Notes: generated by a model not told the origin, from the letters alone. A stretch of 64,000 nt of DNA from GCF_055900595.2 NZ_CM148325.1, one strand, 5' to 3'; shown: positions 57,721-58,644, counted from the stretch's first letter. Numbers and translations are program-made.

Positions 57721-58035
57721 ATGAACAGGAAACAGAAGCAGGAACTGAAAGGCTTCTTACGTAAAGAAATTGCCAGGCTGGAAGATGTGGAATCTCAGTC
57801 ATCAGATATTCCATTCGGAATGGATATCAACGACGCCTGTATGCTCCAGGTATACCGCATAGCTCAGGCTGCACTACAGGCAAAACCGTCAGATGGACTG
57901 GTTAGAGCAGTACGTTTCTATGAACTGGTAAAGCGTGAGAATCCGCCAGTCGAAACCGGAGCATGGCAAGACGCTGTTGACTGGGTGCTCAAAGAGGCTT
58001 GTCAGGTTGTAAACACTGGCATCAAAGGAGACTGA
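57721..58035 (+). CDS. hypothetical protein (104 aa), first gene of coupled triplet
   Basis: Internal ATG of track ORF 57706..58035 (which starts at TTG) with SD AAGGA; stop is 1 nt before the next ATG. Confidence 0.5.
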   Translation: MNRKQKQELKGFLRKEIARLEDVESQSSDIPFGMDINDACMLQVYRIAQAALQAKPSDGLVRAVRFYELVKRENPPVETGAWQDAVDWVLKEACQVVNTGIKGD

Positions 58036-58036
58036 T

Positions 58037-58246
58037 ATGGCTATTGCCGCAAGTTACACCATGCATCTCTATTGTGATTGTCGCCAGTGTACAAATGGTA
58101 AATATCAAACGCCAGACTTCGGTGAATATATCGGTACGTCATGGACTGGCTGTGCAAAAGAGGCGCGTAAGGATGGCTGGCGAATAAGCAAAGACAAAAC
58201 TCGTGCTTTTGCGCCCGGGCATAAAGTTTTGAGGATTAACAAATGA
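58037..58246 (+). CDS. Cys-rich zinc-ribbon-like small protein (69 aa)
   Basis: ORF MAIAASYTMHLYCDCRQCTNGKYQTPDFGEYIGTSWTGCAKEARKDGW.. (CxC-x2-C..C); SD AAGGAG 7 nt upstream. Confidence 0.5.
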   Translation: MAIAASYTMHLYCDCRQCTNGKYQTPDFGEYIGTSWTGCAKEARKDGWRISKDKTRAFAPGHKVLRINK

Positions 58247-58644
58247 CCACTATAACCAAAGAGCGACTACTGACAATCAGGCAGTGGCGCGAAACATACG
58301 GACCTGGTAGCAACGTTGTACTGCCAGCCGAAGAAGCGGAAAAACTGGCACGGATTGCTTTGGCATCGCTGGAAGCAAAACCAATAGGTGCTTTCCACAT
58401 TGCAGAACAGCAGGTCGATGGCACAAGTGACTACATCAAGGATGGGGAGTACCGCTTGCTGACATCTGAAGAACAAAAGATAGCCCAACTTTTAGGCGAT
58501 GCATGGAACCTGTATTTTACATTGCCAGTTGAGCATCCAATGGGTAGAGATGAATTTTGCCGGGCAATTCATCATTGCCAAAATATGGTGTTGGCACGCC
58601 CTGCCATCAGGGCGCTGGCCAGTAAGGGGCAAGGCTATAAATAG
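58243..58644 (+). CDS. hypothetical protein (133 aa), third gene of coupled triplet
   Basis: ATGA overlap with the preceding gene; SD GAGGA; followed by a terminator hairpin. Confidence 0.55.
   Translation: MTTITKERLLTIRQWRETYGPGSNVVLPAEEAEKLARIALASLEAKPIGAFHIAEQQVDGTSDYIKDGEYRLLTSEEQKIAQLLGDAWNLYFTLPVEHPMGRDEFCRAIHHCQNMVLARPAIRALASKGQGYK

Follow-up and report, generated by a model that had tools for sequence, protein, structure and literature searches.

The window analysed here is a stretch of 64,000 nucleotides (nt) from record NZ_CM148325.1 (GCF_055900595.2) that holds an Escherichia coli P2-like prophage adjoining dmsA, and the subject of our analysis is a cassette of three small genes, g1, g2 and g3, which follows the gpA region at the end of the rightward early operon of this prophage. 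The open reading frame (ORF) table and reading of the sequence placed the three genes, each with its Shine-Dalgarno (SD) sequence, as follows:

57721-58035, + strand: g1, 104 amino acids (aa), SD sequence GAAGGA
58037-58246, + strand: g2, 69 aa, SD sequence AAGGAG
58243-58644, + strand: g3, 133 aa, SD sequence GAGGA

One nucleotide separates the g1 stop codon from the g2 ATG, g2 and g3 share an ATGA, and the purine-rich SD sequences lie 7–8 nt 5' of each start. The initial annotation of this DNA, which had reported three genes with a 1-nt gap, a 4-nt overlap and good SD sequences, was reproduced by both the ORF table and the sequence. In RefSeq, g1 and g2 are annotated as coding sequences, and the Prokaryotic Genome Annotation Pipeline (PGAP) limits g3 to its first 135 nt, called as a pseudogene that is 'incomplete; missing C-terminus' (locus L001, 7244–7378), though the ORF is intact.

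Comparison with PHROGs assigned all three proteins to families of unknown function, with g1 matching phrog_660 and phrog_26213 and with g3 split between residues 1 to ~76 (phrog_60, phrog_3323 and phrog_660) and residues 72–133 (phrog_13916). Residues 1–56 of g1 are a P2-lineage N-terminal part ending in the hinge RIAQAALQAKP, and residues 57–104 are a C-terminal domain common to many Ea22-like proteins. Residues 1 to ~70 of g3 are a leader module of the DUF551/DUF550/EaA type and residues 71–133 a P2-lineage C-domain, with the hinge RIALASLEAKP between them, and the hinge motif likewise occurs in most relatives. The two P2-lineage parts are found together in a 135-aa protein (WP_001080496; P0287) consisting of g1 residues 1–56, a 15-aa linker and g3 residues 71–133. 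In other P2-like prophages its undivided gene has parMR on one side and the portal gene on the other, the same place before the portal gene as the cassette, and is a single gene with the 15-aa linker where the window has a 564-nt block including g2. Nucleotide alignment to this P0287 locus (L016) by blastn showed 87% identity between window positions 57711–57889 and L016 614–792 and 96% identity between 58454–58845 and L016 838–1229, where the 564 nt in between stand, in frame, in place of 45 nt of L016:

57890-58453, + strand: lambdoid block of the "exo-xis" type, comprising the g1 C-domain, g2 and the g3 N-module

The left junction of the block (57889/57890) falls exactly past the codons for the g1 hinge, and at the right junction, within g3, the lambdoid leader is joined to the P2-lineage domain without meaningful homology. 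In phage vB_EcoM-606R7 the 564-nt block begins at the same point, and the C-domain gene, g2 and the leader gene are contiguous (megablast query 491–863). Across phage genomes, the part of the block that is widely shared was only window 58024 to ~58380 (megablast, 90–97% identity in 185 phage records), a core formed by the last 12 nt of g1, the whole of g2 and the first ~140 nt of g3. In local comparison with lambdoid prophages and phages, a P1-like phage and a plasmid, the stretch shared at 91–94% identity ran from 13 nt 5' of g2 through g2 into the g3 N-module, over a length of that module that varied between loci, and shorter matches in other phage records reached at most 97%. Carriers of the core include Stx and other lambdoid phages, the P1-like RCS47 and D6, phiV10 and others, in which its neighbours are ead/Ea22-like, DUF551, DUF550 and TraR-like genes in early accessory arrays situated either in the exo-to-xis/int interval or 3' of replication genes. 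Whole-length g1, in the same phage comparison, was found only in P2-like phages; gp20 of P88 has 92% nt identity to g1 and is followed directly by the terminator region, without g2 or g3. The g3 C-domain occurs alone, directly after gpA, in the Yersinia P2-like phage vB_YenM_42.18.

These alignments indicate that g1 and g3 each represent one half of a single gene, joined by recombination to lambdoid modules, and that they flank a self-contained g2, so that in-frame module exchange through a block borrowed from lambdoid phages would have made one gene into three. The PGAP call of the first 135 nt of g3 as a pseudogene follows from the mosaic junction. Calls described as 'partial in the middle of a contig' were also seen to recur at lambdoid exo-xis module junctions (L009, L010 and L012), and mosaic genes probably give rise systematically to artefactual partial or pseudogene calls of this kind.

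The independence of the parts was surveyed in 5426 complete E. coli genomes, with the following counts:

g1 N-part: 96 genomes matched, 22 of them at 99% identity or above
g3 C-domain: 112 genomes matched, 23 of them at 99% identity or above
g2: 665 genomes matched (808 places, 177 of them plasmid-borne), 22 at 99% identity or above

All three parts were present together at this identity (≥99%) in ~22 genomes, and each part was 4–30 times commoner in other combinations than in the g1-g2-g3 form. The g1 N-part matches included 73 at 80–90% identity, whose context is P88-like with a ClpX-zinc-finger-like gene in front, and the g3 C-domain matches included 88 at 95–99% identity within the undivided gene. 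In P88-type phages g1 stands alone, and the g3 C-domain stands alone or is fused straight to the g1 N-part. At the sampled g2 loci, the upstream flank held ead/Ea22-like genes, small hypotheticals or pseudogene fragments, and the downstream flank held DUF551, DUF550, DUF4014 or unrelated hypotheticals. Distant g2 relatives, all of them named 'hypothetical' at source, were always located in long same-strand arrays of small overlapping early genes with no recurrent partner; these arrays belong to temperate elements as well as seemingly virulent phages, and lie beside genes for RNA ligase, Pif1-type helicase and dUTPase. Such separate occurrence and varied flanks are the opposite of the pattern of a co-evolved toxin-antitoxin-chaperone or sensor-effector system. 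The analysis shows a recombinational mosaic at the distal end of a P2-like early operon, not a co-evolved three-component system; taken together with a putative role of its products as early modulators, this is the explanation that we consider reasonably likely.

The central gene of the cassette, g2, matched PHROG 926 over its full length (E 6.6e-37, residues 1–69 of a 69-position profile), and the ratio of non-synonymous to synonymous substitution (dN/dS) against six homologues ranged from 0.08 to 0.32, indicating a real gene under purifying selection. A profile of the g2 family was searched against 1.84 billion cluster representatives (cut-off E ≤1e-3) and recovered 395 of them, nearly all 60–90 aa in length, with the consensus M-I-x-x-G-Y-x-L-x-L-Y-C-D...F-x-G...A-R-x-x-G-W...P-x-H/C. 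Family variants (P0048, P0087, P0173 and the AlphaFold database entry A0A7L6LCT7) showed tandem duplication (134 aa) and fusions. One member is fused to an excisionase-type helix-turn-helix domain (above the NCBIfam cut-off), one has a weak Lar-like C-terminal zinc segment (E 0.0023, below the cut-off) and one is fused behind an Ead/Ea22-like protein (310 aa). The family alignment had no Pfam match, and the family has no model in Pfam, NCBIfam or PADLOC and no solved fold. A large, model-free family with a putative zinc site and a ligand swap of the kind described below lends itself to formal family definition and to a simple biochemical project.

The initial annotation had drawn attention to a CxC-x2-C..C pattern in g2, and the motif YCDCRQC is indeed present at residues 12–18 (Y12-C13-D14-C15-R-Q-C18), with the cysteine of the later ...TGC at residue 39. 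In the family alignment A3 (82 sequences), C13 was present in all 82, G47 was invariant and W48 was found in 81, position 62 was histidine in 59 and cysteine in 23, and position 18 was cysteine in 64 and histidine in 4. Cysteines at positions 15 and 59 were mutually exclusive (48 sequences with C15 only, 31 with C59 only, 3 with both and 0 with neither; Fisher p 1.6e-19), and two ligand types can be distinguished in the family, C-x-C-x2-C...A-P-x-H or C...C/H...C-P-x-C/H. A compensatory swap of this kind is expected where four ligands form one metal site linking the N-terminal strand with the C-terminal tail. Position 39 was variable (C 48, A 15, T 12, V 5, I 2), like a buried small residue. 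The pattern of conservation provides g2 with four conserved Cys/His ligands, and g2 very probably binds one zinc through C13, C15, C18 and H62; the fourth ligand is thus the residue at position 62 (histidine or cysteine in 82 of 82), and C39, which the earlier pattern had included, is not a conserved ligand.

The description of g2 as zinc-ribbon-like holds for a small zinc-binding protein, very probable from the ligand conservation and the compensatory swap, but not for the fold, as neither the classical zinc ribbon (two CxxC knuckles on beta-hairpins) nor a match to a solved zinc-finger fold was found. AlphaFold2 modelling of g2 from the alignment gave a beta-beta-alpha prediction with a predicted local distance difference test (pLDDT) score of 83.7, which matched no solved fold; the run without an alignment (pLDDT 58) was too poor for use. 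Three possible relatives were considered and rejected. The plant ZF-HD homeodomain gave a marginal profile match (E 0.012), put down to chance because a helical bundle does not agree with the beta-beta-alpha model; lambda Ea8.5 showed no sequence or profile similarity; and no similarity was detected to P2 Ogr. In being small and having one putative zinc site, g2 nevertheless resembles lambda Orf73 (TraR/DksA-like C4), Ea8.5 (a homeodomain/zinc-finger hybrid) and P2 Ogr (a C4 late activator), which are early or regulatory proteins of 60–95 aa known or thought to bind RNA polymerase or DNA. Its ligand pattern, C-x-C-x2-C...H with the C15/C59 swap in the family, is distinct from that of all three. 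The g2 protein is basic (isoelectric point, pI, 9.4), and its sequence hints weakly at nucleic-acid binding.

Domain searches with g1 and g3 were largely without result. Pfam gave nothing significant for g1, g2 or g3 (for g1 none even at E ≤10), NCBIfam and PADLOC gave no match for any of the locus proteins (0 PADLOC families for five proteins), and g1 and g3 had no match among solved-structure sequences. Neither protein carries the Ead_Ea22 coiled-coil signature (PF13935 / IPR025153), and DUF551 (PF04448) was not detected in g3, whose C-terminal half is phrog_13916. Direct relationship of g1 and g3 to lambda Ea22 was rejected, as there was no BLASTP similarity. The modules themselves, on the other hand, are shared with named members of these groups: the g1 C-domain is also found on PF13935-carrying proteins (P0409, P0426), the g3 leader is found on >3000 DUF551-type proteins, and identity of either module to proteins named ead/Ea22-like or DUF551 by NCBI was 60–95%. 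Both g1 and g3 follow the Ea22/DUF551 plan, in which a short N-terminal leader is connected through a hinge to an exchangeable C-terminal domain, and they lie in the same kind of early accessory array as the exo-xis genes (Ea22, ead/Ea22-like and the DUF551/DUF550 EaA genes). Mosaicism of Ea22 variants has been published (PMC10834534). Unlike exo-xis genes, g1 and g3 follow gpA in a P2-like phage and are not situated between exo and xis, and they are far smaller than Ea22, without its long coiled coil.

The label 'DNA ligase' attached to phrog_13916 was not accepted for the g3 C-domain, as the members are 61–153 aa long and g3 has no Pfam ligase match, and it is apparently an annotation artefact. 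The family shows the motif L-P-x-E-H-P-x-x-R-x-E-F-C...Q-x-x-V-x-x-R-P, and the same label was seen in Pseudomonas jumbo-type phages (L013 1201–1662; L014 3001–3183).

Upstream of g1, the operon contains three genes, and downstream of g3 it is closed by terminator-like sites:

54580-57090, + strand: gpA, P2-type replication endonuclease and upstream anchor of the operon (phrog_91, E 4.8e-241; RefSeq 'replication endonuclease')
57087-57518, + strand: orf143, member of a family without assigned function (phrog_14984, E 5.6e-82; annotated as WP_000196517)
57515-57709, + strand: orf64, 64 aa (phrog_20764, E 4e-10, unknown function; WP_000086827)
58651-58678, + strand: terminator-like hairpin ending the operon, AACGCCCT-cctcc-AGGGCGTT, then TATTT (sequence reading and terminator scan)
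58691-58716, + strand: second terminator-like site, a hairpin with a T-run (terminator scan)

The gene orf143, for which a Pfam search gave no match, has an ATGA overlap with gpA, orf64 has a GTGA overlap with orf143, and g1 starts 11 nt past orf64. This chain of overlaps and short gaps from gpA to g3 comprises at least six coupled genes, and the cassette is the tail end of a translationally coupled chain started by gpA. The tight packing that the initial annotation had stressed is therefore present but not peculiar to the trio. A simple sigma-70 consensus scan of the + strand (56900–58650) found no promoter-like site, and an Rfam scan of 56900–59750 found no RNA family. A sigma-70-like site was seen antisense over the g2/g3 junction (58276-58249, - strand; TTGTCA, 16-nt spacer, TATAGT; 10 of 12 matches); with 4 sites of this type in the scan, where shuffled sequence would give 2.6, this one is probably due to chance. 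The N-terminus of orf64 is signal-peptide-like (VSRILLFLLFFAPFAQSA/TP...) and its mature part has four cysteines; judged by these features, orf64 may encode a small secreted or periplasmic protein of the early operon.

From these observations a function can be proposed with modest confidence and largely by analogy. The three genes would be transcribed together with gene A upon induction or infection, with coupled translation, and would be off in the repressed prophage. The g2 product would be a small beta-beta-alpha unit in which a single structural zinc (C13, C15, C18 and H62) clamps the N-terminal strand to the C-terminal tail, and its binding partner may be a macromolecule of the host or the phage, whether nucleic acid or a component protein of the transcription or replication machinery. 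The g1 and g3 products would be Ea22-like, each a helical leader presenting an exchangeable C-terminal domain, and the net role of the cassette would be to modulate host physiology or the lysis-lysogeny or early development programme. Genes of the exo-xis region are reported to affect the lysis-lysogeny decision and host physiology; among their products, Ea22 forms tetramers with variable C-terminal domains and favours lysogeny, Orf73 resembles TraR and binds RNA polymerase, and Ea8.5 is a zinc-finger hybrid (PMC7093339, PMC10834534, PMC8614690). As such, the cassette is an ordinary one, one more Ea22/DUF551-style mosaic of the early accessory genes of temperate phages on a P2-like backbone.

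Several points weigh against this interpretation. The relation to the undivided gene may reflect either a block gained by the 135-aa gene or one lost from a three-gene form, the expression timing of g1-g3 is drawn from gene layout, and the g2 zinc site is deduced from covariation and a model. The g2 family as a whole is mildly basic (median pI 8.35, with 65% above 8), and phage 24B, a Stx phage with a dissected exo-xis region, carries none of g1, g2 and g3. In addition, recombination may have left g3 as an inert by-product, as the PGAP pseudogene call would have it, and the slot is a known defence hotspot, a position that may be compatible with a role in defence.

It is a rather unlikely alternative that g2, and possibly g1 and g3, are early counter-defence proteins that inhibit host immunity in the manner of Ocr, Lar or anti-CRISPR types. 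The small size of g2, its inferred early expression and its wide distribution with high mobility across unrelated phage lineages would all be expected of such proteins, and this account is compatible with most of the evidence, differing from the modulator interpretation in the target only. The array of the family member with the Lar-like extension also holds a Lar-like gene; however, that extension is below the cut-off and confined to a single protein, and of the 1511 P2 elements in a 2026 survey only 28 had anti-defence genes.

The position of the cassette raises the further question of defence. The interval between gpA and gpQ is a cos-proximal hotspot of variability and defence in P2-like phages, occupied in P2 by tin and old (Rousset et al. 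2022, PMC9122126), and g1-g3 are located within it. The supplementary table of that study lists the same arrangement as six 'hypothetical' proteins in NZ_CP033635, a record that matches the window at 100% identity, and in six others, and names WP_000196517, WP_001080487, WP_000951718 and WP_000086827 for it (PMC9122126). The locus is thus already catalogued in a published hotspot listing, without a function, and a literature search under its PHROG and RefSeq identifiers found no papers. An anti-phage cargo for superinfection exclusion, expressed in the lysogen, would suit a slot shared with tin, old and many validated systems, where about a third of the cloned unknown hotspot loci gave protection (PMC9122126) and where a 2026 preprint predicted an antiviral signal for 15–32% of unknown P2 hotspot proteins. 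We nevertheless regard this explanation as improbable. The cassette differs from tin/old-type systems in having no defence domains and no PADLOC match to a known system, and in being coupled to the early operon and not separately expressed; its co-orientation, coupling to gpA and lack of a promoter-like site suggest expression only on derepression of the early operon. For g2 and for the g1 and g3 modules, moreover, the closest relatives lie in early lytic operons (exo-xis or post-replication arrays) of lambdoid, P1-like and seemingly virulent phages, and not in defence islands. A better candidate for lysogen-expressed hotspot cargo is a separately transcribed ORF of 237 aa that lies past the operon terminator, just before the portal gene and cos:

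58925-59638, + strand: 237-aa ORF, with a phrog_5091 match that begins at residue 70

The true start of this ORF may be an internal ATG. It had no match in Pfam, NCBIfam or PADLOC, and other E. coli genomes carry it but lack the cassette. A wider caution is that the gpA-gpQ slot is not wholly given to defence systems, part of it being an extension of the early operon.

About equally doubtful is the possibility that g3, and perhaps g1, are non-functional by-products of recombination and that g2 is the only working gene. The incomplete pseudogene call for the first 135 nt of g3 and the joining of its lambdoid leader to the P2-lineage domain without meaningful homology both speak for a by-product. 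However, the g3 ORF is intact over 133 codons, it has kept its SD sequence and ATGA coupling with the C-domain in its native frame, and the order leader, hinge, domain is the usual build of relatives numbering in the thousands, whose C-domains are of many kinds. The ~22 copies of g3 are all at least 99% identical and are too alike for measuring selection.

Finally, the view of the initial annotation that compact triplets of this kind could be toxin-antitoxin-chaperone or sensor-effector modules appears highly improbable here (in such a module one product would inhibit growth, another would neutralise it and the zinc protein would regulate or sense), since the compact coupled genes, the richness of the hotspot in abortive-infection and toxin-antitoxin-like systems and the recurrence of the contiguous order C-domain gene, g2, leader gene in vB_EcoM-606R7 are set against the lack of any toxin, antitoxin, SecB-like chaperone or defence domain in Pfam, NCBIfam and PADLOC, the occurrence of the parts separately in 96, 665 and 112 genomes versus ~22 together, the identity of g1 and g3 as halves of one gene in ~88 genomes, the lack of an own promoter or operator in the consensus scan, and equal packing along the whole gpA chain and in every early-gene array with a g2 relative. 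Homology to structural phage proteins, which had been named as a further outcome against that view, was not found either; g1-g3 are accessory early genes.

Beyond the interpretation of the cassette as a mosaic of Ea22-like modulators, a broader proposal can be made that is unlikely on present sequence evidence but would have wider consequences. The g2 family may be a widespread, unnamed class of zinc-clamped early phage proteins with a specific conserved host target, acting as a plug-in gene between lineages, with the 'ALxAKP' hinge serving as an in-frame recombination joint. If this were true, the conserved target of g2 could be, for example, a defence or transcription component, and the hinge would allow phages to shuffle domains much like exon shuffling.

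The surrounding prophage has the following further features:

48193-49197, - strand: integrase of the P2-like prophage
49258-49599, - strand: repressor of the P2-like prophage
59705-60760, - strand: portal gene Q of the P2-like prophage
60760-62511, - strand: terminase gene P of the P2-like prophage

Seventeen complete E. coli records of RefSeq carry the region 57000–59700 at 100% identity, and 21 genomes cover at least 80% of it; many of the genomes that carry it are of poultry origin. In P88-type P2-like prophages, the gene before g1 (L002 3672–4004; P88 gp19) encodes a protein of ~110 aa with a ClpX-type C4 zinc-finger motif, for which the label 'carboxylate-amine ligase' on P88 gp19 is a mislabel. 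A parM-parR pair lies 5' of the gp19-type gene in these prophages, indicating that the same slot holds plasmid-partition genes in many P2-like phages.

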